Shown here one piece after another: positions 21,251-56,592 of a DNA stretch of 64,000 bases. A program made the translations under genes and the position numbers. The notes beneath the pieces are model-generated. The model saw nothing but the letters and a program-made list of their open reading frames with translations. It made no database searches and was not told the origin of the DNA. The stretch is taken from NCBI GenBank assembly GCA_026389845.1, contig JAPLHB010000190.1, positions 9,845 to 73,844 on the forward strand. The letters are read 5' to 3'. Positions within the stretch are counted from its first letter, which is position 1, and every line of letters starts with the position of its first letter. This stretch comes from Chloroflexota bacterium (lineage in GTDB: Bacteria > Chloroflexota > Anaerolineae > CG2-30-64-16).

Positions 21251-21265
21251 TCAAAGGATGAAGCC

Positions 21266-24200
21266 ATGCTCAACCGAGAAGTCTTCACCAAGGATCCGAC
21301 GACATTCGCCATCCCCAACGACGGGGTCACGGTGGTGGGTGACCCGCAACGGCCCGAAGAGTGGGACGTCCTCCGCTATGAGCTGACCGCGTTCGTGTGC
21401 GAAGGCGAGTACCAGCGCGGCCTGGTGCGCGTGCTGTCCACCTTTCTCCAACACCTCTCACGGCCCAAGCAGCCGGCGGTCTGGGTGAGCGGCTTCTATG
21501 GCAGCGGCAAGTCGCACTTCGTGCGCGTGCTGCAGTACCTGTGGAACAACGTGACCCTGCCGGATGGCGCGCAGGCCCGCGGACTGACGAAGCTACCCGT
21601 CGAAGTGAACGAGCTGCTGACTGAGCTGACCACGGAGGGCAAGCGCCACGGCGGGCTGTGGGCGGCCGCGGGCAAGCTCGGCACAAGTCCAAGCATCCAA
21701 CTCGACATGCTCAAGATCCTCTTTCGGAGCGCGGGCCTGCCGGTTGACTATGCGCCGGCGCGCCTGGTCACGTGGCTGAGGCTGAAAGGGATCTACGATG
21801 CGGTCGCGGCCGGCGTCAGCCAGCGCGGCGCGGAACTGGCGTTCGAACTGGCCAACATGCATGTCTCGCTGGAGCTGGCCGAGAGCATCCACGACGCCTA
21901 TCCGGGCCTGGCCGCGGATGCGCTGGCCGTGTCGGATAAGCTCCAGGCGGAGTTCCCCGGCAAGACGGGGATTGACGATGACGAGATGTTGCAAGCCATG
22001 GAGGATGTGCTGCGTCTGCAATCCAGGGCGCCCGGCAAGCTGCCGCTGACCCTCCTGGTGCTGGACGAGCTGCAACAATCCATCGGCGAACAGCCGGACC
22101 GTGCGTTGGCAGTGCAGGAGATCGTGGAGGCGTGCTCCACCCGCTTCGGCAGCCGCATCCTCTTCGTGGGCACGGGCCAGGCTGCCCTGGAGGCGACGCC
22201 CCAGCTTGGCAAGCTGCAGGATCGCTTCACGGTCCGGGTGCCCCTCGAGGACAAGGATGTCGAGCGGGTCGTACGGGAGGTGGTGCTGCGCAAAGCGCCG
22301 GACAAGGTACCGGCCTTGCAGGCCGTCCTCGATGCGGCCAGCGGCGAGATCAACCGGCATCTGGCCGGCAGCAAGATCGGGTCAACCAGCGCTGACAGCG
22401 GCGACCTGGTACCCGAATACCCGCTGCTGCCCACGCGGCGGCGCTTCTGGGAGCGGGCGCTGCGGGCCATTGATCGCGCGGGCACCGCCGCGCAATTGCG
22501 CACCCAACTGCGCGTGGTGCACGAGGCGGCGAAGGGAGTCGCAGCCCGACCGCTGGGCACCGTGGTCGGGGCGGATACCCTCTATGACCAACAAAAATCG
22601 GCCATGTTGTTGGGACGAGTCCTCCTGCCGGAGATCGCGGCCGCCATTGACGATTTGCGCAAGGATGGCTCGGCCGCGGGCGTGCTCAAGGCCCGGCTCT
22701 GCGCCCTGATCTTCCTGATCGGCGAGCTGCCGGAGATCGGCGTGGCCGCGCCCGGCTTGCGCGCCACCCCGGACACATTGGCTGATCTGCTGGTGGAGGA
22801 CCTGACCGCCGGCAGCGCGGCCCTGCGCGGCCAGATTCCGGGGCTGCTGACGCAACTGGTGGACGCCGGCGCGCTGATGGCCGTGGACGACGCCTACCAC
22901 TTGCAGACCCAGGAGAGCCGTGAGTGGACGCGCGTCTTCAACACACACACCAGCCGCATCAAGGCCGACGATGCGCGCATCGCGGCTGACCGATCCACCG
23001 CGCTCCGCGGCGCGGTGCAGGAGGCTGTGAAGAAGATCCGGCCGGTGCAGGGCGAAAGCAAAACGGTGCGGCGCTTCGAGTTCTATTTTGGTACCGATGT
23101 CCCGCTCGCCGGCGGTGCGTCCGCACCGGAGGCGGTGCCGGTGTGGGTGCGCGACGGCTGGTCGGCCTCCGAGAAGGCGTTCCGGGAGGAGGCCCAGGCG
23201 GCCGGTTCCAACAGCCCCATCGTGTTCATATTCCTGCCGCGCCTCGGCGATGAGGAGCTCAGATCCGCGCTGGCCGGGACCGCGGCCGCGGTGGCCACCA
23301 TCGAGGCCGAGCCGACCCCCAAGACGAGCCAGGAGGGCGCGGCGGCGCACCAGGCCATGGCCTCGCGCCTGACCTCGGAAGCCGAACGCGTGGCGGGGTG
23401 CGTCGCCGTCAGCATCGCCAACGCCCGGGTCTACCAGGGCGGCGGCAACGAGATCGCGGAGGGCAGCCTGGCCGCTGCGGTCGAGGCGGCCATCGGGAAC
23501 GCGCTGGCGCGGCTCTTCCCCAACTTCAAGCTGGCCGATGACGCCAACTGGGGCAAGGTGGTCAAGCGCGCCGGCGAGGGCGCCGGCGATCCGCTGTCGG
23601 GCCTCGGCTACACCGGCAACGCCGAGGACCATCCGGTCTGCAAAGAAGTGCAGACCTTCCTGGGGATCGGGGTGAAAAAGGGGGCCGAGGTCCGCAAGCA
23701 TTTCGGCGGCGCGGGCTACGGCTGGGGTGGCGATGCCATTGACGGCGCCCTGTTGGCCCTGGTCGCCGGCAATACGGTGCGGGCCGAGCGCAACGGCCAG
23801 CCGCTGGCCGCCAAACAGATCATCCAGTCGCAGGTCGGCGTCACGGAGTTCAAGAACGAGGCCGTGATCATCACCGCGGCGCAGCGGATCGGCGTGCGCA
23901 AGCTGATCCAGGATCTGGGCCTGGCCGTCAAGAACGGGGAGGAAGCCCAGGCGATCCCGCTGGTGCTCCAGAAGCTGTGTGACCTGGCGGCCGAGGCCGG
24001 TGGCCCGCCGCCGTTGCCCGAAAAGCCGTCCGTCGAAGCCATCAAGGAACTGCAGGCGCTGAGCGGCAACGAGCAGTTCGCCGCCGCGTTCGACGCACGG
24101 GAGACGCTGCTGGCTCAGCAGCGCGCCTGGGGCCAGGCCAAGACCGCCAAAGACGCGCGGCTGCCCCAGTGGGGGGTGCTGGGGCGGCTCCTGGCCCATG

Positions 24201-24733
24201 CGACCGGGCGGCCGGCCGCCTACACCGTCCGGCCGCAGGTCGAAGCGATCACCGCGCAACGTCTGCTCCTGGCCGAGCCGGACCCCGTCAAACCGTTGCA
24301 CGATGCCTTGACGACCGACCTCCGCAAGGCTGTCCAGGATGCCAGGCAGCGCGTCGTGGATGCCCGCGACCGGGAATTAGCTGCGCTGCGCGAGACGGAT
24401 GAGTGGCGCAAGCTCAGCGACGAGCAGTGGCGGGAGATTCTGCACGCCCAGGGGTTGGGGCCGATCGCGGAGCTGCACGCCGGCACCGATGACCTGCTGC
24501 TGGCCGCGCTGGACGCCAAACCGCTGGAGGCCTGGGCGACTGAGGCGCTGGTGGTCCCCACGCGCATGCGGCAGGCGCGCGAGCAGGCAGCCAAACTGCT
24601 GGAGCCGAAGGCCGTGCGCGTGCGGCCGAAGTCTGCGACGCTGAAGTCAGCAGCCGAAGTGGATGAGTACCTGGGTGTGCTGCGGGCAGAGATCATGGCG
24701 CATATCGAGGAAGGGAAGCCGGTGATTGTGTGA
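21266..24733 (+). CDS. brxC: BREX system P-loop ATPase BrxC
   Basis: Walker A GFYGSGKSH near the N-terminus; ~1150-aa size and position. Start refined to ATG 21266 (AAGGA RBS). Confidence 0.85.
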   Translation: MLNREVFTKDPTTFAIPNDGVTVVGDPQRPEEWDVLRYELTAFVCEGEYQRGLVRVLSTFLQHLSRPKQPAVWVSGFYGSGKSHFVRVLQYLWNNVTLPDGAQARGLTKLPVEVNELLTELTTEGKRHGGLWAAAGKLGTSPSIQLDMLKILFRSAGLPVDYAPARLVTWLRLKGIYDAVAAGVSQRGAELAFELANMHVSLELAESIHDAYPGLAADALAVSDKLQAEFPGKTGIDDDEMLQAMEDVLRLQSRAPGKLPLTLLVLDELQQSIGEQPDRALAVQEIVEACSTRFGSRILFVGTGQAALEATPQLGKLQDRFTVRVPLEDKDVERVVREVVLRKAPDKVPALQAVLDAASGEINRHLAGSKIGSTSADSGDLVPEYPLLPTRRRFWERALRAIDRAGTAAQLRTQLRVVHEAAKGVAARPLGTVVGADTLYDQQKSAMLLGRVLLPEIAAAIDDLRKDGSAAGVLKARLCALIFLIGELPEIGVAAPGLRATPDTLADLLVEDLTAGSAALRGQIPGLLTQLVDAGALMAVDDAYHLQTQESREWTRVFNTHTSRIKADDARIAADRSTALRGAVQEAVKKIRPVQGESKTVRRFEFYFGTDVPLAGGASAPEAVPVWVRDGWSASEKAFREEAQAAGSNSPIVFIFLPRLGDEELRSALAGTAAAVATIEAEPTPKTSQEGAAAHQAMASRLTSEAERVAGCVAVSIANARVYQGGGNEIAEGSLAAAVEAAIGNALARLFPNFKLADDANWGKVVKRAGEGAGDPLSGLGYTGNAEDHPVCKEVQTFLGIGVKKGAEVRKHFGGAGYGWGGDAIDGALLALVAGNTVRAERNGQPLAAKQIIQSQVGVTEFKNEAVIITAAQRIGVRKLIQDLGLAVKNGEEAQAIPLVLQKLCDLAAEAGGPPPLPEKPSVEAIKELQALSGNEQFAAAFDARETLLAQQRAWGQAKTAKDARLPQWGVLGRLLAHATGRPAAYTVRPQVEAITAQRLLLAEPDPVKPLHDALTTDLRKAVQDARQRVVDARDRELAALRETDEWRKLSDEQWREILHAQGLGPIAELHAGTDDLLLAALDAKPLEAWATEALVVPTRMRQAREQAAKLLEPKAVRVRPKSATLKSAAEVDEYLGVLRAEIMAHIEEGKPVIV

Positions 24734-24736
24734 GAG

Positions 24737-24875
24737 AGCGGGCCGGGCCGTCCACGAATGAAACACGAATACACGAATAGCGGGGGCCGGGCCGTCCACG
24801 AATGGGACACGAATTCGCGAATAGGACGGTCGCTCATTCGTGTATTCGTGACGGATTCGTGGACGGCCACCGCTT
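24737..24875. repeat. palindromic repeat unit (CACGAAT x3 / ATTCGTG x3 arms) flanking the GxxExxY gene on the left
   Basis: GTCCACGAATGAAACACGAATACACGAATA ... CATTCGTGTATTCGTGACGGATTCGTGGAC, the same unit as the tandem array at 25411-25752. Confidence 0.6.
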
Positions 24876-24911: not shown

Positions 24912-25469
24912 ATGCCTGGGCTTGTCGTAGATGCCACCGGCAACGATCTCACCTACCGGATTATCGGCGCGGCCATGCGGGTGCATAACCGATTGGGGCC
25001 AGGGTATAAGGAAGAAGTGTATGAGCGGGCGCTGGCTGCGGAGTTAGAAACAGAAGGCGTACCGGTCGAAACGCAGTATCGGGTTGAGGTCTACGATCAG
25101 GGGATCCTGGTCGCGCTGTTTTTCCTGGATCTCTTTGTGGCCCGCACTGTCGTCGTAGAGGTCAAGGCCTTTGCTCATCAGCTCACGAACGATGAGCGCG
25201 CGCAGGTCATCAACTACTTGAAGGCTACCGGCGCGGCGGTGGGCCTGCTGTTCAACTTCGGCCGGCGCAGGCTGGAGTTCCCGCGCATCTTCCCCGGCGC
25301 GGCGGCCACGGGAGACGATTTGCCGCAACGCCTGGGGCGTGATAATGTCAAGAAGCGTGCCGTGCACGAGTTTGGGGCCGGGCCGCCGTCCACACCCGAT
25401 GCCAGACGCGAGAGTGGCGGGGGCCGGGCCGGGCCGCCGTCCACGAATGAAACACGAATACGCGAATAA
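24912..25469 (+). CDS. GxxExxY family protein (PD-(D/E)XK-like)
   Basis: N-terminal IIGAAMRVHNRLGPGYKEEVYERAL (GxxExxY) and VEVK motifs. The true protein is probably ~130 aa; the 3' tail of the ORF reads into the repeat array. Confidence 0.55.
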   Translation: MPGLVVDATGNDLTYRIIGAAMRVHNRLGPGYKEEVYERALAAELETEGVPVETQYRVEVYDQGILVALFFLDLFVARTVVVEVKAFAHQLTNDERAQVINYLKATGAAVGLLFNFGRRRLEFPRIFPGAAATGDDLPQRLGRDNVKKRAVHEFGAGPPSTPDARRESGGGRAGPPSTNETRIRE

Positions 25470-25752
25470 TGACGGGCGGCCATTCGTGGATTCGTGACGG
25501 ATTCGGGGACGGCGACGACCCGACGCGAGAGCAGCGGGGGCCGGGCCGGGCCGCCGTCCACGAATGGGACACGAATTCACGAATAGCGGCGGGCGGCCAT
25601 TCGTGGATTCGTGACGGATTCGGGGACGGCGACGACCCGACGCGAGCGTAGCGGGGCCGGGCCGCCGTCCACGAATGAAACACGAATTCAAGAATAACGA
25701 CGGGCGGCCATTCGTGTATTCGTGGCGGATTCGTGGACGGCGACGACCCGGC
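25411..25752. repeat. tandem array of three ~118-bp palindromic repeat units
   Basis: Units begin near 25411, 25530 and 25648. Each contains the inverted (CACGAAT)3 arms and a GGGCCGGGCCG spacer-like GC stretch. There is no unique spacer content. Confidence 0.6.
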
Positions 25753-25781
25753 CTCCTCCCACAGACCCAAGAATAGGAACC

Positions 25782-28700
25782 ATGCCATCCCTACCCACCG
25801 ACCTCCGCAAAACCCTTGAAAATGCCATCAACGCGGCCCGGCGGGCCGCGGAGGAGGCGGCGCGCGCCGCGTTGACCACGCTGGCCGTCGCCCGCGACGA
25901 CCCGTTCGCGACCATGGACGAGCCGCAGCGCCAACTGCGCCGCGGCCTGCGCGCGGTGGCGCGCCGACTGGGCGATGACACAAAGTCCGACGCGTTGCCC
26001 CTCCTGACCCACGAGGTCGCCTACGAGCAGTGGCACCGCATGTTGTTCGCTCGCTTCCTGGCCGAGAACGATCTGCTGATGCACCCCTCTGGTGTCGCAG
26101 TGTCGCTGGCGGATTGCGCGGAACTGGCCCCTGACGAAGGCGCGGCCGACGCCTGGGACCTGGCCGCGCGCTACGCGGCTGCGATGTTGCCCGGCATCTT
26201 CCTGGCGGACGATCCGACCGTCCAGGTGCGCTTTGCGCCGGAGGGCCGCCAGCGGCTCGAAGCGATCCTGGCCGGCCTGCCGCCCGCGGTCTTCACCGCC
26301 GACGACGGCCTGGGGTGGGTCTACCAGTTCTGGCAGACGGACAAGAAGCGTGAAGTGAACGCCAGCGGCCGCAAGATCGGCGGGGCCGACCTGGCGCCGG
26401 TGACGCAGCTCTTCACCGAAGACTACATGGTGCGCTTCCTGCTGGAGAACTCGCTCGGCGCGTGGTGGGCGGCGCGCCACCCGGATAGTCCGCTGGTGAA
26501 GGAGTGGGGTTATTTACGGTGGGTGGACGAGGAGTCAGGAGTCAGGAGTCAGGGAGCAGGAGGCAGCGACGGCAATACGCAATACGCAGTACGCAGTACG
26601 CAATACGCAGTACGCAATACGCCGTCCCGCGTCCCCGCCGCCGGCGCCTTCCCCGGCTGGCCCGACCGCGCGGCGCAGGTGACGATGATGGATCCCTGCG
26701 GCGGGTCGGGGCATTTCGTGGTGGCCGAGTTCGGCATGATGCTGCGCATGCGGATGGAGGAGGAGGGGCTGAGCGCGTCCGCGGCCGGCGACGCGGTGAT
26801 CCGCGATAACCTCTTCATGCTGGAGCTGGACCCCCGCTGCACGCAGATCGCGACCTTTGCGCTGGCGTTAGCGGCCTGGAAGAGCGGCGGCTACCGGCCG
26901 CTGCCGACCCCCAACATCGCCTGCTCCGGCATCGCAGTGACGGGACAGCTCGAGGACTGGCTGCGCCTGGCCCGCGGGGACGAACGGCTGCGCACCGCGC
27001 TGGAACGACTGCACAAGCTCTTTACGAACGCGCCCACCCTGGGCAGCCTGATCAATCCCGCGGACGTGCCGCTGAGCGAGCGGATGTTCAGCGCCGACTA
27101 CGAGGAGGTGGCGCCGCTGTTGGGGAAGGCGTTGGCAAAGGAGCGGGACGATCCGGCCGCGGCCGTGTTGGGCGCTGCGGCGGAGGGGGTGGCGAAGGCA
27201 GCGAAGCTGCTGGCAGGGCAGTACACGCTGGTGGCGACGAATGTGCCGTATCTGGGACGCAGCCTCCAGACAGAAACGCTCAAGAACTTTGCAGACAGGG
27301 TTTTTCCAGTCTCAAGGGCTGACCTGGCCACCGTTTTTGTGGAGCGTTCTCTGTCATTTACAGACTCGGGTGGTACCTGTGCGGTTGTCACCCCTCAGAA
27401 CTGGCTGTTTTTGAAATCGTATGAAGAACTTCGCAGGAAATTGCTTCAGTCCCAGTCGTGGAACCTGCTTGCGAGATTGGGTGCTCAAGCATTTCAGACC
27501 CCGATGTGGGATTTCAATGTTGGGCTATTTATCGTCACACACCGTCCACCGGCAGAAAACCATGAAGTGGGAGGAACGGACGTCTCACGTAGCCGAAAGC
27601 CATCGGTCAAGGCCGATTTGTTGCGGAATGACCCAATTCGGTTCGTTAACCAAGAGAGCGAGCTACGAAATCCCGATACGAGGATCACGCTCGAAAAAGC
27701 CAACCTTGGTGCGTTGCTCCTGCATTATGCAGACGGGCTGCAGGGAATCTCCCCGGCAGACTATCCCAGGTTCGGTCGTTGCTTTTGGGAGCTACCAAGA
27801 CTAATCGAGGGCTGGCGATGGTATCAAGGCACGGTTAGTTCTACGATGCCCTTTGGTGGACGCGAAAGAGTTCTCTGGTTTGACGCTCTCTTGCGAGCAG
27901 CACAGGAGCTTGGTTCTGCAATTCGAGGCCGAGCTGCGTGGGGCAAATGGGGTGTGGCAATAAGCCAGATCGGGAAACTCTCCGCGAACTTGTACACAGG
28001 CGATTTGTTCGACAACAACTTGGCGGCTCTGATTCCACACGATCAGACTTTGCTTCCCGCGCTGTGGGCTTATTGTCAGTCCCCGACCTTCCACGACCAA
28101 GTCAGGCGAATCGATCAGAAGCTCTACGTCCAGAATGCTACGCTGGTGAAAATTCCTTTCGACCTTGACTACTGGCAGCAAGTCGCAGACGCGGCCGGCC
28201 CCCTCCCCGAGCCGTACTCCGACGACCCCACCCAATGGCTCTTCAACGGCCACTCCGCGGGCGCCACCGAGCCGCTGCAGGTGGCCGTGGCGCGGCTGTT
28301 GGGCTATCGCTGGCCGCAGCAGGCCCAGGACCACCTCGGCGCCCACGCCGATGCGGATGGCATCGTCTGCCTGCCCGCGGTGGGCGGCGAACAGCCGGCG
28401 GCCGAACGCCTGCGCGCGCTCCTGGCCGCAGCCTTCGCCAATCCGCAATCCCTGCCCAACACCGCAGACGCCGGGCACGCAATACGCAGTACGCAATACG
28501 CCGGATGGTCGGCCGCTGTCCAGGAGCAGTTGCTCGCCGCGGCCGGATTCCCCAGCAAGACCCTGGACGACTGGCTGGCCGACGGCTTCTTCCCGCAGCA
28601 CTGCCGCGTCTTCCACAACCGGCCCTTCATCTGGCATGTCTGGGACGGCCGCAAAGATGGCTTCTCGGCGTTGGTCAACTACCACAAGCTGGATCGCGCT

Positions 28701-29084
28701 GTCCTGGAGAAACTGATCTATACTTACCTCGGCGCGTGGATCACCCGCCAGCGCGATGACCGCGACGCCGGCGCCCCGGCCGCGGAGGGGCGGTTGGTGG
28801 CCGCGCTGGCGCTGCAGAAGAAGCTGATCGCCATCCTGGAGGGGGAGCCGCCGTACGACATCTACGTGCGCTGGAAGCCGCTCCATCAGCAGCCCATCGG
28901 CTGGGCGCCGGACCTCAACGACGGCGTGCGGCTCAACATCCGGCCATTTGTCACAGCGGGCGTGCTGCGGAGCCGGTTCACGATCAATTGGAAGGTGGAC
29001 CGCGGCACGAATCCGGACGGCAGCGAGCGGATCAATGATCGGCACGTCACGCGGGCGGAGAAGCTGGCGGCGCGGGGAAAGTGA
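25782..29084 (+). CDS. pglX: BREX-1 adenine-specific DNA methyltransferase PglX
   Basis: ~1100 aa; DPCGGSGHF (motif I) region; C-terminal block conserved with the remnant at 31331-31568; canonical position. Start refined to ATG 25782. Confidence 0.85.
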   Translation: MPSLPTDLRKTLENAINAARRAAEEAARAALTTLAVARDDPFATMDEPQRQLRRGLRAVARRLGDDTKSDALPLLTHEVAYEQWHRMLFARFLAENDLLMHPSGVAVSLADCAELAPDEGAADAWDLAARYAAAMLPGIFLADDPTVQVRFAPEGRQRLEAILAGLPPAVFTADDGLGWVYQFWQTDKKREVNASGRKIGGADLAPVTQLFTEDYMVRFLLENSLGAWWAARHPDSPLVKEWGYLRWVDEESGVRSQGAGGSDGNTQYAVRSTQYAVRNTPSRVPAAGAFPGWPDRAAQVTMMDPCGGSGHFVVAEFGMMLRMRMEEEGLSASAAGDAVIRDNLFMLELDPRCTQIATFALALAAWKSGGYRPLPTPNIACSGIAVTGQLEDWLRLARGDERLRTALERLHKLFTNAPTLGSLINPADVPLSERMFSADYEEVAPLLGKALAKERDDPAAAVLGAAAEGVAKAAKLLAGQYTLVATNVPYLGRSLQTETLKNFADRVFPVSRADLATVFVERSLSFTDSGGTCAVVTPQNWLFLKSYEELRRKLLQSQSWNLLARLGAQAFQTPMWDFNVGLFIVTHRPPAENHEVGGTDVSRSRKPSVKADLLRNDPIRFVNQESELRNPDTRITLEKANLGALLLHYADGLQGISPADYPRFGRCFWELPRLIEGWRWYQGTVSSTMPFGGRERVLWFDALLRAAQELGSAIRGRAAWGKWGVAISQIGKLSANLYTGDLFDNNLAALIPHDQTLLPALWAYCQSPTFHDQVRRIDQKLYVQNATLVKIPFDLDYWQQVADAAGPLPEPYSDDPTQWLFNGHSAGATEPLQVAVARLLGYRWPQQAQDHLGAHADADGIVCLPAVGGEQPAAERLRALLAAAFANPQSLPNTADAGHAIRSTQYAGWSAAVQEQLLAAAGFPSKTLDDWLADGFFPQHCRVFHNRPFIWHVWDGRKDGFSALVNYHKLDRAVLEKLIYTYLGAWITRQRDDRDAGAPAAEGRLVAALALQKKLIAILEGEPPYDIYVRWKPLHQQPIGWAPDLNDGVRLNIRPFVTAGVLRSRFTINWKVDRGTNPDGSERINDRHVTRAEKLAARGK
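26531..26626 (+). repeat. two adjacent heptanucleotide tandem-repeat tracts inside pglX: (GAGTCAG)3-5 then (AATACGC/AGTACGC)7
   Basis: Direct reading of 26531-26626; encodes ...SGVRSQGAGGSDGNTQYAVRSTQYAVRNT... inserted just before motif I. A shorter (3-unit) copy of the ACGCAATACGCAGTACGC tract recurs at 28481-28501. Confidence 0.7.
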
Positions 29085-29174
29085 GTCAGTAAGCCTATCG
29101 GATTGTGGTAGAATAGGCGCGACGCTCGGAGCGAGTCTCGAGACATCTGCACAGCCAAGGAAGGAGGCCCCCAC

Positions 29175-30275
29175 ATGCAGATTCGCAGGGTCATTCTTAA
29201 ACAAGTTCGCAACTTTCGCGATTTCGACCGCTCCTTCGAGGACGGTTGGACCGGCCGCGTGCCTGACGCGCTGCTGCTGATGGGTTCAAACGGCAGCGGC
29301 AAAAGCACGCTGTTGGACGCGATGGCAGCCCTCTGGCAGGGCCTGGCAGACTCGCTGCATGGGGGAAATCCCCTGACCGATGCCGTAGGGTCGCGCCTTT
29401 TGCAGTCGGCGGACCTGGCTGCAATGGAAGTGATAGGATTCGAGCAAGAGTCACTATGGATTTATGCGGGCAGACAGGATCCCGCCCGGGAATTCGCGGC
29501 CGCCCATGCCAACGCGCACCGGTTTGGGTTGCAGTACCATTATTTCCTTTCCCCGGAAGAGTTGCGCGGCACGCACATCAGCGGCGTCTACACGCCGCCC
29601 GGACTCCCGGAGCGAGATAGCGAGGGTGGACGAAAGCAGGCCGCGATCTGGACCGAACGACTGACCGACCGACTGACCGAGAACCAACTCGGAAAGCGGG
29701 CCGATCTGCCGAACCTCGTGTACCTGGCCAGTGAAAACCGGCTGTTGCTTCCGTTGACCGAGAAATTCAGTGTCCAACCGGAGCCGGAGGAGTACCAGTG
29801 GCTGGCCCGCTACGAGCCGGTCGCCAGCCGCCGAGGTAGTCTGCAGAACTACCTCTACAACTTGAAGGTCGTGGATGAGGTCAGGTTCAACGAGATCGCG
29901 TCACAGTTCAGTGCGTTCCTGGTCGGCAAACGGCTGAATGGCTTCGACCGGCGCACCGGCAACCTGTTGGTGCAGGTTGGCAACGGAGAAAGCCACCCGA
30001 TCGAGGAACTGAGTAGCGGCGAGAAGCAAGTGCTCCTGATGCTGGCAACGATCACCCGCTGGCTGTGGCCCGGCGGCATCGCGTTGGTTGACGAGCCGGA
30101 CCTTCATCTGCACGTCTCGTTGGCGAGGGCGTTCGTCAGCCACCTGCGGCGGATGGTAGAGGAGAAAGGTGGCCAACTCATCATTGCTTCCCACATGCCG
30201 GAACTTTGGGAGGAATTCACCGACTCTCACCGGGTGCGGCTGAACGCATCCGATGAAAAGGGGCAGACCAAGTGA
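29175..30275 (+). CDS. AAA15/ABC-type ATPase, PARIS AriA-like
   Basis: Walker A GSNGSGKST, ABC signature-like LSSGEKQ, Walker B IALVDEPDLHLH; 366 aa; immediately followed by a DUF4435/Toprim gene with a 4-bp overlap. Strong RBS AAGGAAGGAGG. Confidence 0.55.
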   Translation: MQIRRVILKQVRNFRDFDRSFEDGWTGRVPDALLLMGSNGSGKSTLLDAMAALWQGLADSLHGGNPLTDAVGSRLLQSADLAAMEVIGFEQESLWIYAGRQDPAREFAAAHANAHRFGLQYHYFLSPEELRGTHISGVYTPPGLPERDSEGGRKQAAIWTERLTDRLTENQLGKRADLPNLVYLASENRLLLPLTEKFSVQPEPEEYQWLARYEPVASRRGSLQNYLYNLKVVDEVRFNEIASQFSAFLVGKRLNGFDRRTGNLLVQVGNGESHPIEELSSGEKQVLLMLATITRWLWPGGIALVDEPDLHLHVSLARAFVSHLRRMVEEKGGQLIIASHMPELWEEFTDSHRVRLNASDEKGQTK

Positions 30276-31096
30276 GCCAGACACCACGGTGGGTCAGAGA
30301 TATTGAGAGTCTGGCTCGTGGCCTTCCCGTTCTGTTGGTCGAAGGCGAGGACGACGTCACCCTGCTCGGGTATTTTCTGGGCCAGCACGCTCCCGGCTGG
30401 CAGCAGCGCCTCTACCTGGCGGCGGCAAACGGCAAGGGCCACGTCGTTAGCGGCGTGGCCGTCCACCGTCCTGACTGGATCGGAATTGTGGATCGCGATG
30501 AATGGAGCCCAGCCGACGTCCAAGCGGCCGCGGCACGCTCTCCGCGACTGCACGTCCTGCCGCGCTTCTGCACCGAATCCTACTTCTGCGATCCGGCCGA
30601 GCTTTGGGCCGCCCTCCCGGCGCAACAGCAGGCACGCGCGGGGGATAACCTCCTTGCGCTGGCCGGGCCGATTCACGCCAAACTTCCCGACTGGGTGGCA
30701 CACGGCGCGATGTGGCGCGTCCTGCGCGACCTCTACAAGGAGGCGCGGCTGCCGGCCAAGCTAGAGGATAGTCCGGTGACCGACGAAGCGACCATCCGTA
30801 GCATTCTCACCGACTGGCACGCCCGCCTTGCTCCCGACCCGGTCTTGGCGCACTATCGCAATGAATTGGGCAACGCCCAAACACTCGCTGCGGCGGCACA
30901 ACTGCACGAATACATCCACGGCAAGAAGTTTTTCAACCAAGTCGTGGTCCAGGTGTTGGATGGGTTGTTCGCCGGTAAGGGCGCCGACGACTGGTTACAA
31001 AAGTTGCGCGATGCCCCGATCCTGTCGCCGCCCGATTTGGTTGCGCTGTTCGATCAAATCCTGGCCCAGTTGCCCAGACAGGCCCCTCATGAGTGA
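30272..31096 (+). CDS. DUF4435 (OLD-family Toprim) protein, PARIS AriB-like
   Basis: Toprim catalytic motifs VLLVEGEDD (Glu) and GIVDRDEW (DxD); 274 aa; coupled to the upstream ATPase. Confidence 0.55.
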   Translation: MSQTPRWVRDIESLARGLPVLLVEGEDDVTLLGYFLGQHAPGWQQRLYLAAANGKGHVVSGVAVHRPDWIGIVDRDEWSPADVQAAAARSPRLHVLPRFCTESYFCDPAELWAALPAQQQARAGDNLLALAGPIHAKLPDWVAHGAMWRVLRDLYKEARLPAKLEDSPVTDEATIRSILTDWHARLAPDPVLAHYRNELGNAQTLAAAAQLHEYIHGKKFFNQVVVQVLDGLFAGKGADDWLQKLRDAPILSPPDLVALFDQILAQLPRQAPHE

Positions 31097-31568
31097 GCCA
31101 ATTGCGTTTCTCGAAGCGCTGGTTGCCGCGCTGCAACGCGCCGGCAGCTATAACAAAAACGACCAGTGCCCACCGGCGGCCATCCTCTGGCCCGATAAGG
31201 AGCGGCAGTGGGAACCTTTGTTGCCGGTGCTGCGTGAGCGGCTGCCGCTGCTGACCCTCGGCTCTTACGCACCAACTCAACGCACTGGCCCGGCCTATTG
31301 GCTGCGCTGCATGATCGCGCGAACCCTGCCCTACGACATCTACGTGCGCTGGAAGCCGCTCCAGCAGCAGCCCATCGGCTGGGCGCCGGATCTCAACGAT
31401 GGGGTGCGGCTCAATATCCGGCCGTTCGTGACCGCCGGCGTGCTGCGCAGTCGGTTCACGATCAATTGGAAGGTGGATCGGGGGACGAACCCGGATGGGA
31501 GCGCGCGGGTGAATGATCGGCACCTGACGCGCAGCGAGAAACAGGCCGTGCGCCGGTCATACCCATAG
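31089..31568 (+). pseudogene. chimeric remnant: pglZ 5' end (~80 codons) fused in frame to pglX 3' end (~78 codons)
   Basis: MSEPIAFLEALVAALQRAGSYNKNDQCPPAAILWPDKERQWEPLLP...MIARTLP is near-identical to the PglZ N-terminus (34294-). The following YDIYVRWKPLQQQPIGWAPDLNDGVRLNIRPFVTAGVLRSRFTINWKVDRGTNPDG... is near-identical to the PglX C-terminus (28850-29084). Confidence 0.65.
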
Positions 31569-31690
31569 GCATGACTTGACGGCTGGTCTGGCGTAAGTTT
31601 TGCGCAATCACAGGCTGAATCGCTTGCGGGCTGACAAAGTCAGCATTTGGTATCGCCGTCATAAGTACCTAAACTCAAGGAGGTAGGATC

Positions 31691-33718
31691 ATGATCATGG
31701 TGATCGGAATAGCTCTGCTCATCGTCGTGTTGGTGGTGCTGGCGTTGCTCGCCTTGTCGGGCATCCGCTTCATCCCCAACAACCGCGTTGGCATCGTCGA
31801 GAAGCGCTTCGGCGCCAAGTCCGTCGAGACCGGCTTTATCGCACTCAAGGGAGAGGCTGGCTTCCAACCCAAGCTGCTGCGCGGGGGCCTGCACTACCTG
31901 ATGCCGATCCAGTATCTCGTCCACCGTTCGCCCCTGGTGACCATCACCCAGGGCAAGATCGGCTACGTCTTTGCGCGCGACGGGCATCCGCTGGTGCCGA
32001 TGCAGGTGCTGGCTTCGAACGTCACCGCCAATGACTTTCAGGATGTGGCCGCGTTCCTGCAAGACGGCGGCCAGCGCGGGCCACAGCGTCAGATCCTGCG
32101 CGAAGGCACCTACGCCATCAACCTGGCGCAGTTTATCGTCATCACCGAGGAGAAGGTCTACTACCTGCCGCTCAACCGCGCCGAAGAAGGGGTCATACAG
32201 GATATGGCCAAGGTGATCGCCGAGCGTGACGGCTTTCGGCCGGTAGTGCTCAAGGATCAGGACGACAAGACCGGCATTGTGACGATCCACGACGGACCCT
32301 CGTTGCCGCCGGACGAGATCATCGCGCCCATCGTGGGCGGCGACCCAACCAACGTGGAGACGTACCACAATAACTTCCAGGCGCCTGACCGGTTCCTGAA
32401 GGCCGGCGGCCTGCGAGGGCGCCAGTTGCAGGTCTTGGTCGAAGGCACCTACTATCTCAACCGGCTGTTTGCCACGGTGGAGATGATCCCCAAGACCATC
32501 ATCGAAATCGGGACCGTCGGCGTGGTGGTTTTCTACACCGGCGAGGCCGGCCGTGACCTGTCGGGCGAGGACTATCGGCATGGTGAGTTGGTGGCGAGAG
32601 GCCATCGCGGCGTGTGGGACGCGCCGCTCATGCCGGGCAAGTACGCGTTCAACACCTACGCCGGCAAGGTCGTGGCGGTCCCCACTACCAACGTCATCCT
32701 GAAGTGGATCCGAGGCCAGGTCGGCTCGCACCACTTCGACGAGAACCTGGCGGAGATCTCGTTGATCACCAAGGACGCCTTCGAGCCGTCGCTGCCGCTG
32801 TCGGTGGTCATGCACATTGACTACCGCAAGGCTCCCCTGGTGGTCCAGCGCTTCGGCGACGTGAAACGGCTGGTCGAGCAGACCCTCGACCCCATGGTGT
32901 CGGCCTACTTTAAGAACATCGGCCAGACGCGCACGCTGATCCAGCTCATCCAGGAGCGCGGCAACATCCAGCAGATTTCGAGTCAGGAGATGAAGGAAAG
33001 GTTCACGCACTATAACCTGGAGCTGGAAGAGGTGCTGATCGGCACGCCGGTCGCGATGGCCGAGGACAAACAGTTCGAGCTTATCCTGAACCAACTGCGC
33101 TCCCGGCAGATCGCCGTAGAGCAGATCGAGACCTATGGACGGCAGCAGATGGCGGCAGGGAAGGAACGGGAGCTGCGCGAGGCACAGGCGCGCGCTGATC
33201 AGCAGCGCAACATCACCGAATCGGAGCTGAGCATCACGGTGCAGAGCAACCAGGGCAAGGCCGAATACGCCCGGGCGCTGCAGCAGGCGGCGCAGATCCG
33301 CGCCCTGGCCGAAGCTGAGGCCGAAAAGACCGCCCGCGTCGGCATCGGTCAGGCCATCGCCATCGAGGAACAGGTGGCGGCCTATGGCGGCCCGCAGTTC
33401 CAGGTCACGCAGCAGGTGATGAACCGCTTTGCCGAAGCGGTGCAGCAGTCGAAAGTGGACGTGGTGCCGCGCGTGGTGATTGGCGGCGCCGGGGGCACTG
33501 CGACCAGCAGCGGCGTGATGGAAGGGCTGTTGACGCTCCTGCTATCCGACAAGCTAGGCCTGGAAGTGAGCGCCGCTCGGCAGCGAGAACCGAATCCGCA
33601 AGCGGACCAGTTGCGGGCTCAGATCCGCGAGGGCCTCAAGGAGAGCCGGCAGGGCACAGCCGGGCCAGTGCCGCCCGCCCCGGCCCCGGCTGGCCCGTCG
33701 GGGGCGAAGCCGGCTTAG
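31691..33718 (+). CDS. SPFH/band-7 (flotillin-like) membrane protein with long C-terminal coiled coil
   Basis: N-terminal TM helix, SPFH-like IRFIPNNRVGIVEKRFG region, Ala/Glu/Gln-rich coiled coil and C-terminal Pro/Ala tail; AAGGAGG RBS 8 nt upstream. Confidence 0.55.
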   Translation: MIMVIGIALLIVVLVVLALLALSGIRFIPNNRVGIVEKRFGAKSVETGFIALKGEAGFQPKLLRGGLHYLMPIQYLVHRSPLVTITQGKIGYVFARDGHPLVPMQVLASNVTANDFQDVAAFLQDGGQRGPQRQILREGTYAINLAQFIVITEEKVYYLPLNRAEEGVIQDMAKVIAERDGFRPVVLKDQDDKTGIVTIHDGPSLPPDEIIAPIVGGDPTNVETYHNNFQAPDRFLKAGGLRGRQLQVLVEGTYYLNRLFATVEMIPKTIIEIGTVGVVVFYTGEAGRDLSGEDYRHGELVARGHRGVWDAPLMPGKYAFNTYAGKVVAVPTTNVILKWIRGQVGSHHFDENLAEISLITKDAFEPSLPLSVVMHIDYRKAPLVVQRFGDVKRLVEQTLDPMVSAYFKNIGQTRTLIQLIQERGNIQQISSQEMKERFTHYNLELEEVLIGTPVAMAEDKQFELILNQLRSRQIAVEQIETYGRQQMAAGKERELREAQARADQQRNITESELSITVQSNQGKAEYARALQQAAQIRALAEAEAEKTARVGIGQAIAIEEQVAAYGGPQFQVTQQVMNRFAEAVQQSKVDVVPRVVIGGAGGTATSSGVMEGLLTLLLSDKLGLEVSAARQREPNPQADQLRAQIREGLKESRQGTAGPVPPAPAPAGPSGAKPA

Positions 33719-33828
33719 TGCCTATCCGAATAATAGCAGCGCGGGCTCCCATGCCCGCAACCGGCGGCGGGCGAAAGTACAGCCGATGTCTGGGAGCCGC
33801 CTCCGCTGGTTATTCGGATAGGCTGAGC

Positions 33829-34024
33829 TATACTCGGCACGGTCACAAAATGCGCTTGTAGGCGGCTGTCATTCTGAGCGGGTCTACCCCTGACTTCTCG
33901 TGACGGCGAGCATCCAGCGAAGAATCCGTCCCGCGACGAGACCCCTTCGACTGCGCTCAGGGCAGGCTCTTCGCTGGATTTTCACCGCGACGCACTTCAC
34001 GGGACCAACCCGCTCAGGGTGACA
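33829..34024. repeat. MITE-like repeat, copy A (inverted termini TGTCATTCTGAGCGGGT / ACCCGCTCAGGGTGACA)
   Basis: Shares >85% identity in blocks with copies at 34076-34241, 43091-43308, 46622-46755 and 49619-49768. Internal palindromes ATCCAGCGAAGAATC / CTTCGCTGG and CTTCGACTGCGCTCAGG. Confidence 0.6.
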
Positions 34025-34075
34025 AAGCCAAGGTTTCAGCGCCGCGAAAAACGCAGTCTATGCCCGTGTGCAGTA

Positions 34076-34241
34076 TATACTCGGCACGGTCACAAAATGC
34101 GCTTGTAGGCGGCTGTCATTCTGAGCGGGTCTACCCCGTGTCGTGCGTGGCGGCGAGTCTCTAGCGAAGGGTCTTGTTGCAGTATGGAACGGATTCTTCG
34201 CTGGTTTCACGCCGCAACGAGGAGTCTGGGGCTAACCCGCT
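34076..34241. repeat. MITE-like repeat, copy B (short variant)
   Basis: Same 5' block ATACTCGGCACGGTCACAAAATGCGCTTGTAGGCGGC plus inverted termini TGTCATTCTGAGCGGGTCTACCCC ... GGGGCTAACCCGCTCAGAATGACA. Confidence 0.6.
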
Positions 34242-34293
34242 CAGAATGACAATTATTCACTCATGAAATAGCTGAACCGATCAGTGAGGCGCC

Positions 34294-36612
34294 ATGACTG
34301 ATAGCATGACCTTCCTTGATGCGCTGGCGCAAGCTATCTATCGCGCGGGCAGCTACAACAAGAATGACCAATGCCCGCCGGCCGCGATCCTCTGGCCCGA
34401 CAAGGAGCGCCAGTGGGAGCCGCTGCTGCCGGCGCTGCGCGAGCGGCTGCCGCTGCTGACTCTCGGCCCCTACGCGCCCCAAGAGCGCAGCGGCCCGGCC
34501 TGCTGGCTGCGCTGCATGATCGCGCGCACGTTGCCCGACGACATCCTGCCGGCCGACGCCGCCCCGATCATCTATCTGCCGGGGGTCAGCCGCGCCGAAA
34601 TCCGCGCCATCGAGGAGTGCCCCAAGCCGCTCCAGCCGCTCGCCGAGCTTCAGTACCGCGGCGTGCTGTGGACGCACAAGAACGGCCGCGACTGGACGGT
34701 CGCCGGCTTCTTGCAGAGTACCGACAGTGGCCTGGGCATCGCCGTCAGCGGCGACACAGCCACGAAGGAAGCGCTTGGTCGGGCGTTGCTCAAGCTGGCT
34801 TACGAACCGGTAGCTCGCCTGAAGAAGGAGGCGCCGCTCCGTGCGGCCTTCTTCGACGAATTGCTCAACCCGGATCAAGTACGACGTCTGTTGCTCTGGC
34901 TTAATGACCCCGATAGCTACCCAAAGACCCTGGCCCAGGCCGAGTGGTACGCATTTTGCGACCTCTGCAAGCGCACATACGGCCTTCACCCCGTGGACGA
35001 CGGCGCGCTGATCGCGGCGGAACGTCTCGGGACTTCGCAGGGCGCCTGGGAGATCGTCTGGGACCGCTTCAACGAGAATCTGGAGGGGTATCCCAACCTG
35101 CCGGAACTCCTGCGCCGGGCGCGGCCGGAACGATCTATCTTTGAAAAGAGCCTGCCCTACTGGCCGCAGGACACCGAAACGGCCGAGGGGGACTTGCGCG
35201 CGGCGCTGCTGGCGTTGGGCGATGCTTCACCGACCGGCGCGCGCGAGGGCATCGCGCAGCTTGAGGCCGAGCACGGCGCGCGCCGCGGCTGGATCTGGGC
35301 CAGGCTGGGCCGGGCTCCACTCGCCGCCGCGCTGGCACATCTGGCGGCCCTGGCCCAGGCAACCGAGAAAACGCTCGGCGGCGCGACTGTGGCCGACGTA
35401 GCCGCGGCTTACACTGGAGGGGGCTGGCAGGCAGATGCCGCCGTGTTGGATGCGTTGGCCGCGGTTGAGGCCGCGGAGGACGTGGCAGCAGTGAAGGCCG
35501 CGCTCCTGCCGCTCTACCGCCCGTGGCTGGAAAAAGCAGCGGCGGCGCTCCAGGCCGCCATCCTCGGCAACCCGGTAGCGAACTATGGGACGACGACGCC
35601 ACCGGCAGCCGATGCGGGCACGTGCATCTTGTTCAGCGATGCCTTGCGTTTCGATGCCGGCATGAGGCTGGTGGCCGCGCTGGAGCGCCGGGGCCTGTCA
35701 TGTACCACCGGGTGGCGCCTGGCCGCCCTGCCAACCGTCACGCCGACAGCCAAGCCCGCGGTTTCGCCTGTCGCTGAACTGATGATTGGCAGCAGCGAGC
35801 CGAGCCTGACCCCGGTGGTCAAAGCGACCGGCGCGAGCAGTACGGTTGCCACCTTGCGCAAGCTGCTCGAAGGGGCCGGCTACCAGATCCTGACCGGGGA
35901 TGCCCTCGGCGATCCGAGCGGGATGGCGTGGACCGAGTTGGGCGCGATAGACCAGTACGGCCACGAGCACGGTTGGGAGGTGGCGCATCATCTGCCGGGC
36001 GAGCTGCGCAACCTCGAAAGACGGATCGACGCGCTGCTGAGCCACGGCTGGCAGCAGGTGATGGTCCTCACCGACCACGGCTGGCTCCTGCTCCCCGGCG
36101 GCCTGCCGAAGATCGAGCTGAAAGAGCATCTGACCGTGCTCCGCAAGGGCCGCTGCGCCGCGCTCAAAGAGGGCGCGCAGACCGATCAGCACACGATCCC
36201 GTGGCATTGGGACAAGAACGTGCGTATCGCCGTAGCGTCGGGCATCGCCTGTTACGAGGCCGGCAAAGAGTACGAGCACGGCGGCATCAGCCCGCAAGAG
36301 TGCGTCGTGCCGGTCATCGCGGTCTCAAGGCCGGTTGCCACCATCGCCCAAGAGACCCAAATCACCGGCGTCACCTGGAAGGGGCTGCGCTGCTCGGTCT
36401 CAGTGAGTGGGGCGGGTGCGGGCATGACCGCCGACATCCGCACCAAGGCGGGCAACGCGGCCACGTCGCTCACCACGCCGCGACCCGTCGAGACCGGCGC
36501 CGCGTCACTGTTGGTCGAGGATGACGACCAACTGGGCGCGGCTGCGTTCGTCGTGGTCCTTGCAGCAGATGGGTCGCTCGTGGCACAAACACAGACCACG
36601 ATTAGCGGATAA
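34294..36612 (+). CDS. pglZ: BREX-1 alkaline-phosphatase-superfamily protein PglZ
   Basis: 772 aa, PglZ-type phosphatase domain (TDHGW, QYGHEHG metal-binding segments); canonical position before brxL. Confidence 0.85.
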   Translation: MTDSMTFLDALAQAIYRAGSYNKNDQCPPAAILWPDKERQWEPLLPALRERLPLLTLGPYAPQERSGPACWLRCMIARTLPDDILPADAAPIIYLPGVSRAEIRAIEECPKPLQPLAELQYRGVLWTHKNGRDWTVAGFLQSTDSGLGIAVSGDTATKEALGRALLKLAYEPVARLKKEAPLRAAFFDELLNPDQVRRLLLWLNDPDSYPKTLAQAEWYAFCDLCKRTYGLHPVDDGALIAAERLGTSQGAWEIVWDRFNENLEGYPNLPELLRRARPERSIFEKSLPYWPQDTETAEGDLRAALLALGDASPTGAREGIAQLEAEHGARRGWIWARLGRAPLAAALAHLAALAQATEKTLGGATVADVAAAYTGGGWQADAAVLDALAAVEAAEDVAAVKAALLPLYRPWLEKAAAALQAAILGNPVANYGTTTPPAADAGTCILFSDALRFDAGMRLVAALERRGLSCTTGWRLAALPTVTPTAKPAVSPVAELMIGSSEPSLTPVVKATGASSTVATLRKLLEGAGYQILTGDALGDPSGMAWTELGAIDQYGHEHGWEVAHHLPGELRNLERRIDALLSHGWQQVMVLTDHGWLLLPGGLPKIELKEHLTVLRKGRCAALKEGAQTDQHTIPWHWDKNVRIAVASGIACYEAGKEYEHGGISPQECVVPVIAVSRPVATIAQETQITGVTWKGLRCSVSVSGAGAGMTADIRTKAGNAATSLTTPRPVETGAASLLVEDDDQLGAAAFVVVLAADGSLVAQTQTTISG

Positions 36613-36741: not shown

Positions 36742-38787
36742 ATGGAACTGGATAGGTTGGACCAACTCGCGGCCGAAGCATTCACGGGGTACGTCGTCCG
36801 CAAGGACCTGGCTCTGCGGTTTCGCGGCCAGTATCCCGTGCCGACCTACGTCGGCGAGTTCCTGTTGGGACGCTACTGCGCCAGCACCGACCCGGCCGAG
36901 ATCGCGGAAGGGCTGGAGATCGTCGAGCGCCAGATGCGCGAGCGCACCGTGCGGCCGGGCGAGGAAGAGTTGTTCAAGTCACGGGCGCGCGAGCGCGGCT
37001 CAGTCAAGCTGATTGATCTGATCACCGCGCGGCTGGACACCGCGACCGACTCCTACCTGGCCACGCTGCCCAGCCTGCGCTTGCGCGACGTGCGCATCGA
37101 CGCGGAGACGGTCGCGGGCAACGAGCGCATGTTGACCGGCGGCTTCTATGCCGAAATCCAGCTTGAGTACGACGCCGCGATTGCCCAGGAACGCAACGGC
37201 CGGCCCTTCGGCATCACCGCCTTGCGCCCCATCCAGCTTTCCAAGCGCGGCGTTTCGGATGACCTGGCCCGCGGCCGCGCGGCCTTCACCACCGAGGAAT
37301 GGCGGCAACTCCTGTTGCGGAGCGTCGGCTTCGAGCCGGAGCAGTTCACCCGGCGGGCACAAGACATTCTGCTCCTGCGTATGGTCCCGTTCGTCGAGCG
37401 CAACTTCAACGTGGTGGAGCTTGGTCCGCGCGGCACCGGCAAGTCACACCTCTACCAGCAAATCTCCCCCTACTCGCACCTGGTCTCCGGCGGCAAGGCC
37501 ACCGTGGCGCAGATGTTCGTCAACAACGCCACGGGCCAACGCGGCCTGGTGTGCCTCTACGACGTGGTCTGCTTCGATGAGGTCTCCGGCATCGCCTTCG
37601 ACCAGCGGGACGGCGTCAACATCATGAAGGGCTACATGGAGGCCGGGGAGTTCAGCCGGGGCCGCGAGAACATCCGCGCCAGTGGCAGCATCGTCATGGT
37701 GGGCAACTTCGAGGTGGACGTGGAGCATCAGCAGCGGATCGGCCACCTGCTGGGCCCGCTCCCGCCGGAGATGCGCAACGACACCGCCTTCATGGATCGC
37801 ATCCACGCCTACCTGCCCGGCTGGGACGTGCCCAAGCTCGACCGCGCCCTGTTCACCGAGCACTTCGGACTGGTGAGTGACTTCCTGTCAGAGGGTTGGT
37901 CACAACTGCGTGCCGAGAACCGGCTGCCGGTCGTCGCGAGCCGCATCCGCTACGGCAGCGCGATCAGCGGCCGCGATGCCAACGCCATCAACCACACCGT
38001 CAATGGCCTGCTCAAGCTGCTCTATCCCGACCGCGAGATGGCGATCAGCGATGAAGACCTGGCATGGGCCGTGGAACTGGCGCTGGAGTGTCGCCGCAGG
38101 GTGAAGGAGCAGCAGAAGCGCATCGGCAGCGCAGAGTTCCGCAACACCCACTTCAGCTATCAACTCGGCGTCGAAGGGGTCGAGAAGTTCGTCGTGACAC
38201 CGGAGCTACAAAGCACCCAGGCCATCGGCAGCGATCCGCTGCCGCCGGGCCAGGTGTGGGGCATCAGCCCCGGCGGTCCGGACGAAGGCGCCGGCCTCTA
38301 CCGGATTGACGTCAACGTGGGGCCGGGCGCCGGCGTGCGCATCGTCAACTTCCCCGCGCCGGGGCCGTTCCGCGAGAGCATCAAGTACGGCGAGCAGAAC
38401 CTGATCATGCGTGCCCGCGAGCTCGTCGGCGACCGCGACCCGCGCCAGCACGAGTTCACCGTGCAACTGCGCGCCTTCGACGCGGCCAAGACCGGAGCGT
38501 TCCTGGGCCTGCCCGCGCTGCTGGCATTCTGCAGCGCGCTGCTGGGCAAGAGCCTGAAGGGTGGCCTGATCGCCGTCGGCGCGCTCAACCTGGGCGGCGG
38601 CCTCGACCCGGTCTACAACGCCGTCAACGTTGCCGAGTTGGCGATCGAGAAGGGCGCGTCCATGCTGCTCATCCCCATCTCCGCCCGCCGGCAGTTGAAC
38701 GAGCTGTCGGACGAGATGGCGATGAAGCTGACGATCCTGTTCTATGCGGACGCGCGCGAGGCGCTGTTGAAGGCGCTGGGGGATTAG
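36742..38787 (+). CDS. brxL: BREX system Lon protease-like protein BrxL
   Basis: 681 aa; AAA+-like P-loop GPRGTGKSH plus C-terminal Lon protease-like domain; terminal gene of the BREX-1 operon. Confidence 0.85.
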   Translation: MELDRLDQLAAEAFTGYVVRKDLALRFRGQYPVPTYVGEFLLGRYCASTDPAEIAEGLEIVERQMRERTVRPGEEELFKSRARERGSVKLIDLITARLDTATDSYLATLPSLRLRDVRIDAETVAGNERMLTGGFYAEIQLEYDAAIAQERNGRPFGITALRPIQLSKRGVSDDLARGRAAFTTEEWRQLLLRSVGFEPEQFTRRAQDILLLRMVPFVERNFNVVELGPRGTGKSHLYQQISPYSHLVSGGKATVAQMFVNNATGQRGLVCLYDVVCFDEVSGIAFDQRDGVNIMKGYMEAGEFSRGRENIRASGSIVMVGNFEVDVEHQQRIGHLLGPLPPEMRNDTAFMDRIHAYLPGWDVPKLDRALFTEHFGLVSDFLSEGWSQLRAENRLPVVASRIRYGSAISGRDANAINHTVNGLLKLLYPDREMAISDEDLAWAVELALECRRRVKEQQKRIGSAEFRNTHFSYQLGVEGVEKFVVTPELQSTQAIGSDPLPPGQVWGISPGGPDEGAGLYRIDVNVGPGAGVRIVNFPAPGPFRESIKYGEQNLIMRARELVGDRDPRQHEFTVQLRAFDAAKTGAFLGLPALLAFCSALLGKSLKGGLIAVGALNLGGGLDPVYNAVNVAELAIEKGASMLLIPISARRQLNELSDEMAMKLTILFYADAREALLKALGD

Positions 38788-53204: not shown

Positions 53205-53224
53205 GCATCATGGGGAGAGCTACC

Positions 53225-53434: not shown

Positions 53435-53460
53435 TCCGACTTCTGAATGCCGAGGTATTC

Positions 53461-56535
<3,075 letters not shown>

Positions 56536-56592
56536 GAAATCCGAAACGCGGATCCGGCGAAGGAAGCATCTGACACGTAGCCCGGGGGTGAC

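Follow-up and report, generated by a model that had tools for sequence, protein, structure and literature searches.

In this study we describe a pair of overlapping genes inside a complete type 1 BREX operon, in a 64-kb stretch of DNA from a Chloroflexota metagenome-assembled genome (MAG). We refer to the whole stretch as the window. The pair is probably a PARIS-family abortive-infection module, composed of an AriA-like ATPase and an AriB-like Toprim protein, which the BREX operon carries as cargo. An earlier reading of this DNA from its letters alone (the sequence-only reading) had proposed such a module, and both open reading frames (ORFs) are found with the coordinates and sizes that it gave. 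They overlap by 4 bp (GTGA), formed by the GTG start codon of the partner at 30272 and the TGA stop codon of the ATPase gene at 30273-30275, and the two genes are translationally coupled. The pair and its ribosome-binding site are:

29157-29167, plus strand: purine-rich ribosome-binding site AAGGAAGGAGG, read from the sequence, inside the 90-nt gap after the pglX stop codon
29175-30275, plus strand: ariA-like gene for an ABC ATPase of the OLD-ABC/AAA_21 type, 366 aa, start codon ATG at 29175
30272-31096, plus strand: ariB-like gene for a predicted Toprim nuclease, 274 aa, start codon GTG at 30272

The GGAGG at 29163-29167 lies 7 nt 5' of the ATPase start codon. The N-termini of both proteins agree with those of their homologues (MKIRR.. 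for the ATPase and M..P.W.. for the partner), and the AlphaFold2 (AF2) models of both are of high confidence. A scan of positions 28800-34400 for promoters and terminators gave nothing above chance: the interval from pglX to the pair contains neither a consensus promoter nor a terminator that exceeds chance. A Rfam scan of 19000-39500 gave no match.

The Walker A, Walker B and ABC signature motifs that had been read from the ATPase sequence are all present and, together with the H-loop, are invariant across 50 ATPase homologues:

29283-29309, plus strand: Walker A, G37-S-N-G-S-G-K43-S-T45 (codons 37-45 of the ATPase)
30009-30029, plus strand: signature LSSGEKQ (S280, G282, E283)
30090-30095, plus strand: Walker B, D306/E307
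30192-30194, plus strand: H-loop, H340

The best PADLOC models for the ATPase are AriAB (2e-24) and AriA (2e-20), above many PtuA, AbiLi and other ABC-ATPase models, and AriAB/AriA rank above all PtuA models in each of the 50 family members (50/50). In Pfam the best model is AAA_21 (67.7 bits). AAA_15 matches as well (51.8 bits), which bears out the earlier description as an AAA15 ATPase in part, but it is not the best model. A search of the PDB with the single sequence finds AriA as the best hit (8ux9, E 7e-9), while a profile search with the ATPase family finds the retron Ec83 ATPase (1.6e-19) slightly ahead of AriA, which comes second (2.1e-18). Within the OLD-type ABC ATPases it belongs to the AriA/PtuA group.

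The partner possesses the Toprim E and DxD motifs that the sequence-only reading had pointed out, as E24 and D74-R-D76, and all five of its acidic Toprim residues are invariant across 51 Toprim homologues:

30341-30343, plus strand: E24, in LLVE24G..D28
30353-30355, plus strand: D28
30491-30493, plus strand: D74, in D74-R-D76
30497-30499, plus strand: D76
30575-30577, plus strand: E102

AriB is the only PADLOC match of the partner (1.3e-9, 36.5 bits), as it is for all 51 of the 51 Toprim family members (best 7.6e-23). A search with AriA and AriB profiles had been suggested as a check of the PARIS assignment, and these profiles come out best across both families. In its predicted structure the partner has the AriB fold, including the helical C-terminal/dimerisation domain beyond the Toprim core. 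Neither Pfam nor NCBIfam gives a match to the partner, and Pfam DUF4435 fails to match it even at E 10. The earlier label of a DUF4435 Toprim is right in the Toprim motifs, but Pfam does not return that family for the partner. Among the 51 family members, Pfam matches are found to DUF3226 (25), DUF4435 (21, E<0.01) and OLD-like_TOPRIM (12). The NCBI entry that is 100% identical to the partner is named 'MAG: hypothetical protein NT169_24895 [Chloroflexi bacterium]'.

The 12 of 51 members with OLD-like_TOPRIM raise the question whether the pair could instead be an OLD/Gabija-like DNA nuclease split over two genes, working for BREX as an additional, DNA-degrading effector. The ATPase would then sense phage DNA or the status of BREX, and the Toprim protein would nick or cut phage DNA and not tRNA. 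The close coupling of the pair to pglZ in the operon is in line with this possibility, and OLD-ABC-linked nucleases have been proposed as backup effectors in a 2026 BREX survey (PMC12839542). We nevertheless consider it unlikely, with AriB as the sole PADLOC match of the partner, AriB itself being an RNase (PMC12409363), and most of the loci with long flanks (21 of 33) lying outside BREX (see below). In OLD and GajA the ATPase and Toprim domains are part of one polypeptide that cuts DNA, whereas here they are two separate proteins, and the extra domain of the nuclease matches AriB, unlike OLD/GajA. Gabija furthermore requires the UvrD-like helicase GajB, but no helicase is adjacent to the pair. 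The generic split of an OLD-family nuclease, named by the sequence-only reading as the finding that would speak against PARIS, is not what the profiles return: the AriA/AriB profiles are best, and in PADLOC nothing other than AriB matches the partner.

The AriB scores of the partner are modest, and we calibrated them on the experimentally studied AriB of E. coli B185. Its sequence was recovered from a PDB alignment, for which the query was the DUF4435 protein of a canonical PARIS pair on a Pseudoalteromonas plasmid. With the PADLOC AriB model the genuine B185 AriB reaches 34.9 bits (4e-9), against 36.5 bits for the window partner. Pfam, DUF4435 included, matches neither B185 AriB nor a 42%-identical homologue, and no precomputed Pfam matches exist among 37 close canonical AriB relatives. 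The window partner thus scores just as the founding AriB does, with similar PADLOC bits and no Pfam match, and since genuine AriB is also missed by Pfam, the Pfam miss of the partner is no evidence against PARIS membership. The published detection rule for PARIS combines an AAA_15 (at least 32 bits) or AAA_21 (at least 27 bits) ATPase with an adjacent DUF4435 gene (PF14491, at least 27 bits) (Rousset et al. 2022, PMC9122126). Both of the Pfam scores given above place the ATPase within its half of this rule, in a gene that overlaps its neighbour by 4 bp. With this Pfam library the DUF4435 half cannot separate members from non-members. Pfam-based PARIS rules miss this clade with short ATPases and, in the Pfam copy that we used, even the founding AriB. 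The residues of the two-metal site of AriB (E26, D30, D88, E90 and E122; PMC11464382) align to E24, D28, D74, D76 and E102 of the window partner, and this register is kept both in hhalign and with the recovered B185 AriB sequence.

The PARIS system of E. coli B185 (PDB 8UX9 / 8V46) is likewise a two-gene ATPase and Toprim module with intact ABC motifs, its five metal-binding acidic residues correspond to those found here, and its AriA and AriB are the families that PADLOC ranks best for our pair. It differs in several respects. The nuclease has 274 aa here and 308 aa in AriB, and the B185 system is located in a P4 satellite hotspot, while our pair is in a BREX operon. The ATPase has 366 aa here against 464 aa in AriA, which contradicts, for the ATPase, the size agreement put forward in the sequence-only reading. 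About 80 aa of this difference appear to fall between Walker A and the signature, where AriA has IS1, a coiled coil and IS2. In AriA, the trigger-binding pores and the hexameric propeller are formed by the insertions IS1 (122-180) and IS2 (242-289). The ATPase also differs in Pfam, where AAA_21 and not AAA_15 is the best model, and its fold is nearer to PtuA.

These differences bring up a Septu/retron-type module with a PtuA-like ATPase, in which the HNH partner was swapped for a Toprim protein and which would be assembled and regulated like PtuAB and not as an AriA6:AriB3 propeller. The lead of the retron Ec83 ATPase over AriA in the profile search fits this idea, and so does the apparent lack of about 80 aa at the IS1/IS2 position of AriA. 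It is distinctly improbable, however, given that AriAB/AriA stand above all PtuA models in PADLOC in every family member and that the partner is AriB-like and not an HNH protein (no HNH match was found with PADLOC, Pfam or fold comparison). The partner of PtuA in Septu and in type I-A retrons (PDB 8EE4, 9E8Z, 9KJX) is the HNH nuclease PtuB, whereas here it is a Toprim protein, and no reverse transcriptase or msr/msd element is found near the pair. An ATPase with a DUF4435-type Toprim is PARIS by definition (PMC9122126), so that this alternative concerns the architecture and not the family.

The BREX operon around the pair is of type 1 and its gene set is complete, with brxA, brxB, brxC, pglX, pglZ and brxL on one strand and full-length PADLOC matches for all six:

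19801-20622, plus strand: brxA (PADLOC BrxA 9e-87)
20615-21163, plus strand: brxB (PADLOC BrxB 2e-72)
21200-24733, plus strand: brxC (PADLOC BrxC 1291.7 bits)
25722-29084, plus strand: pglX, the BREX type 1 methyltransferase gene and upstream neighbour of the pair (PADLOC PglX 1385 bits over the full length; Pfam Eco57I/N6_Mtase)
34294-36612, plus strand: intact pglZ, 772 aa (PADLOC PglZ 926.6 bits over the full length)
36742-38787, plus strand: brxL (PADLOC BrxL 945.5 bits)

In gene order the ATPase and Toprim pair is placed between pglX and pglZ, as had been described, but its immediate downstream neighbour is not the intact pglZ, which lies 3.2 kb further on. Directly 3' of the pair there is a chimeric pglZ/pglX remnant (pglZ'::'pglX), followed by an SPFH gene.

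To see how common this arrangement is, we surveyed 80 species-representative genomes or loci that carry relatives of the Toprim protein. In 77 of these 80 loci the Toprim gene is directly preceded by an ATPase gene, so the pairing is not by chance. In 22 of the 80, there is a PglX homologue upstream, PglZ or BrxL downstream, or both. Flanks of 8 kb or more on each side are available for 33 loci, of which 12 are BREX-1 loci and 21 are outside BREX, and the pair is therefore not dependent on BREX; some copies stand alone. The relatives embedded in BREX-1 come from Betaproteobacteria, Aeromonas, Erwinia and E. coli R18, among others. In E. coli R18 (L092, NZ_CP186506.1 1043199-1044988) the order is pglX, ATPase gene, Toprim-family gene and pglZ. 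The RefSeq labels of the R18 pair are only 'ATP-binding protein' and 'hypothetical protein', and standard annotation does not recognise the PARIS-like clade to which it belongs.

In the closest Chloroflexi/Anaerolineae relatives the pair is immediately upstream of pglZ. The Toprim stop codon and the pglZ start codon overlap by 4 bp in loci L006-L011 and are separated by a short gap in L005, and further upstream of the pair this group (L005-L011) has variable cargo: NB-ARC/TPR proteins, GmrSD or DUF5131. In L001, a more distant relative, the pair is separated from pglZ by Fic and one other gene. The module is mobile but strongly enriched in the pglX-pglZ interval. In three BREX loci, L009-L011, the Toprim partner is shortened and has lost the helical C-terminal domain, while it still overlaps the pglZ start:

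L009 and L010, 11095-11580: shortened Toprim gene, 161 aa
L011, 4647-5132: shortened Toprim gene, 161 aa

An apparent ATPase-Toprim fusion of 630 aa (P0194, in L014) turned out in the alignment to be a frameshift after Walker B that reads into the Toprim frame, and we did not use it as evidence.

Three features, the place directly 5' of pglZ, the overlap of stop and start codons that several relatives show, and the presence of about a third of the species-level loci in BREX-1, lead to the hypothesis that the short-ATPase clade is a PARIS lineage dedicated to BREX and not an autonomous cassette. Such a lineage might keep watch on BREX itself, for example on inhibitors that have bound to PglX, or make physical contact with PglZ. 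We find this quite unlikely. If it were true, the pair would act as a guard, by another mechanism than the direct sensing of a trigger in E. coli PARIS, and the pglZ'::'pglX scar would be a footprint of cargo exchange between BREX loci by one homologous and one microhomology-mediated crossover.

PARIS in this position has been seen before. In Salmonella Typhimurium D23580 (BREXSty) a PARIS system is embedded between pglX and pglZ, and in the same study PARIS makes up 2.21% of the recognised systems in this interval (PMC11341690). The 2026 survey describes PARIS-like OLD-ABC and TOPRIM modules that have been recruited by BREX, and offers the same anti-anti-restriction rationale (PMC12839542). 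Our pair shares with both the gene type and the position, ariA/ariB-type genes between the pglX and pglZ of a type 1 BREX, as well as the rationale of a backup against an anti-BREX protein such as Ocr. It differs from the D23580 system in its host phylum, Chloroflexi, and in being parted from the intact pglZ by the remnant and the SPFH gene. With PARIS between pglX and pglZ already described in Salmonella and in large surveys, the window pair is an ordinary further example of PARIS in BREX, from a distant clade. What it adds is an example from the Chloroflexi, in a clade that has many members but is poorly annotated. The compact ATPase of this clade would be a useful comparison for finding out which parts of AriA are required for trigger sensing and nuclease sequestration.

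Several observations weigh against assigning the pair to the PARIS family, or against carrying the PARIS model over to it. AriB was not found in PDB sequence searches with the partner, either with the single sequence or with a 51-sequence profile, and was recovered by fold comparison alone. The hhalign comparison of the partner family with 30 canonical AriB relatives is marginal (E 5.7e-4, probability 29%, 166 columns), which indicates that the partner belongs to a clade distant from E. coli AriB. DUF4435, part of the original PARIS rule, does not match the partner, although genuine AriB likewise fails. The residues R28 and R31, by which AriB contacts AriA, have no counterpart in the partner, which has E26 and V29 there. 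In structure comparison the ATPase fold is nearer to PtuA-type ATPases than to AriA, which limits the transfer of the PARIS model. The D23580 PARIS, the one BREX-embedded PARIS that has been tested, was not activated by Ocr or by an Ocr homologue, and it gave no defence against the phages tried (PMC11341690). For this clade, the proposed PARIS function is read from sequence by comparison with the E. coli system.

In E. coli, PARIS is triggered by Ocr and by Ptr1/2, which release AriB from AriA. Taking the mechanism of that system as our model (PMC11464382, PMC12409363), we suggest that the ATPase would act as sensor and scaffold, its oligomer keeping the nuclease in an inactive state close to the ATP sites. 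The trigger may be a phage protein that binds the ATPase, plausibly an anti-restriction or anti-BREX protein of the acidic DNA-mimic kind, upon which an ATP-dependent release would free the nuclease and allow it to dimerise. The freed nuclease would be expected to cut the anticodon stem-loops of host tRNAs, so that translation halts and the infection is aborted once BREX has been disarmed. The ATPase appears to lack about 80-100 residues of the insertion/coiled-coil region of AriA, so that its oligomers may be built otherwise than the E. coli complex, and its trigger may also be another. The layered defence triggered by Ocr, which the sequence-only reading had put forward, would apply to this pair by analogy and is already in the literature. 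As the concept of a backup that responds to anti-BREX proteins has been published, the window instance leaves the picture unchanged.

The region downstream of the pair shows traces of rearrangement. Its features up to the intact pglZ are:

31089-31568, plus strand: chimeric remnant ORF, 159 aa (PADLOC PglZ 2e-27 for residues 8-81 and PglX 1e-29 for residues 75-156)
31691-33718, plus strand: gene for an SPFH/Band 7 membrane protein, 675 aa (Pfam Band_7 5.6e-12)
33829-34252, between the SPFH gene and pglZ: non-coding repeat elements, with a unit of about 190 nt that is present twice

The ATG of the remnant overlaps the stop codon of the ariB-like gene (ATGAGTGA). Its first 81 or so codons (252 nt) correspond to the 5' end of pglZ, with about 78% nucleotide identity to 34293-34545, and its last 77 or so codons to the 3' end of pglX, with 83-86% identity to 28850-29084. 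An 8-nt microhomology, ACGACATC (about 31333-31340), marks the in-frame fusion of the two parts, which are visible as the direct repeats D1 and D3. Most simply, the remnant can be read as the scar of a recombination with a related BREX locus, in which one homologous and one microhomology-mediated crossover duplicated the junction of the pglX end and the pglZ start. The identities to relatives are too similar to choose which copy of this junction is the native one, the pglX end of the full gene being slightly closer than the fragment. It is unlikely that the chimeric junction is an assembly artefact, since the identity between the two copies is no more than about 78-86% and an 8-nt microhomology is far below the k-mers of assemblers.

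A remnant directly downstream, together with the shortening of the nuclease to 161 aa in L009-L011 and the lack of activity of the embedded Salmonella PARIS (PMC11341690), could mean that the pair is in decay, a passenger that ceased to function after the rearrangement which separated it from pglZ. This is highly improbable: both window ORFs are full length in comparison with their homologues, they keep all the invariant catalytic residues, the ribosome-binding site is good and the AF2 models are confident.

The SPFH gene, which lies between the remnant and the intact pglZ, is not part of the PARIS-like pair, and its protein has no PADLOC match. Its 80 closest metagenome relatives, at 69-92% identity, never adjoin BREX or PARIS-like genes, so that it is not a BREX cargo among them. 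The nucleotide homology to relatives with 91% identity ends at the borders of the gene, at 31672 and 33718. The repeat elements at 33829-34252 contain a 62-nt exact direct repeat and have the terminal inverted repeats TGTCATTCTGAGCGGG / CCCGCTCAGAATGACA. Rfam has no match to them, nor to the non-coding repeats at 24740-24866 and 25405-25750. These last two flank a GxxExxY gene (24912-25469) between brxC and pglX, and comprise a 117-nt x3 tandem array and a 44-nt x1.9 array.

The pglX gene itself shows several further features. Its real start is possibly an ATG about 60 nt further downstream than 25722. Within the coding sequence there are heptanucleotide tandem repeats at 26530-26622 (AGGAGTC x5.3 and GCAATAC x7.3) and, 1.9 kb beyond these, at 28477-28501 (ACGCAAT x3.6). 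A change by one unit would shift the reading frame, and these repeats may therefore be phase-variation tracts for the BREX methyltransferase. The GC content of pglX drops to 0.54-0.58 between 27000 and 28200, compared with 0.64-0.70 for the remaining pglX and the BREX genes, and this could reflect the horizontal exchange of an internal segment, perhaps the one for target recognition. A second defence-like cluster is found at 50289-60880, about 11.5 kb downstream of brxL. It encodes a DrmD-like SNF2 helicase of 971 aa (PADLOC DrmD 1e-196), a type III-like methyltransferase of 1057 aa (795 bits) and a type III-like restriction enzyme of 1060 aa (789 bits), and it also includes ORFs at 56593-57636 and 60909-61937 with no assigned family.

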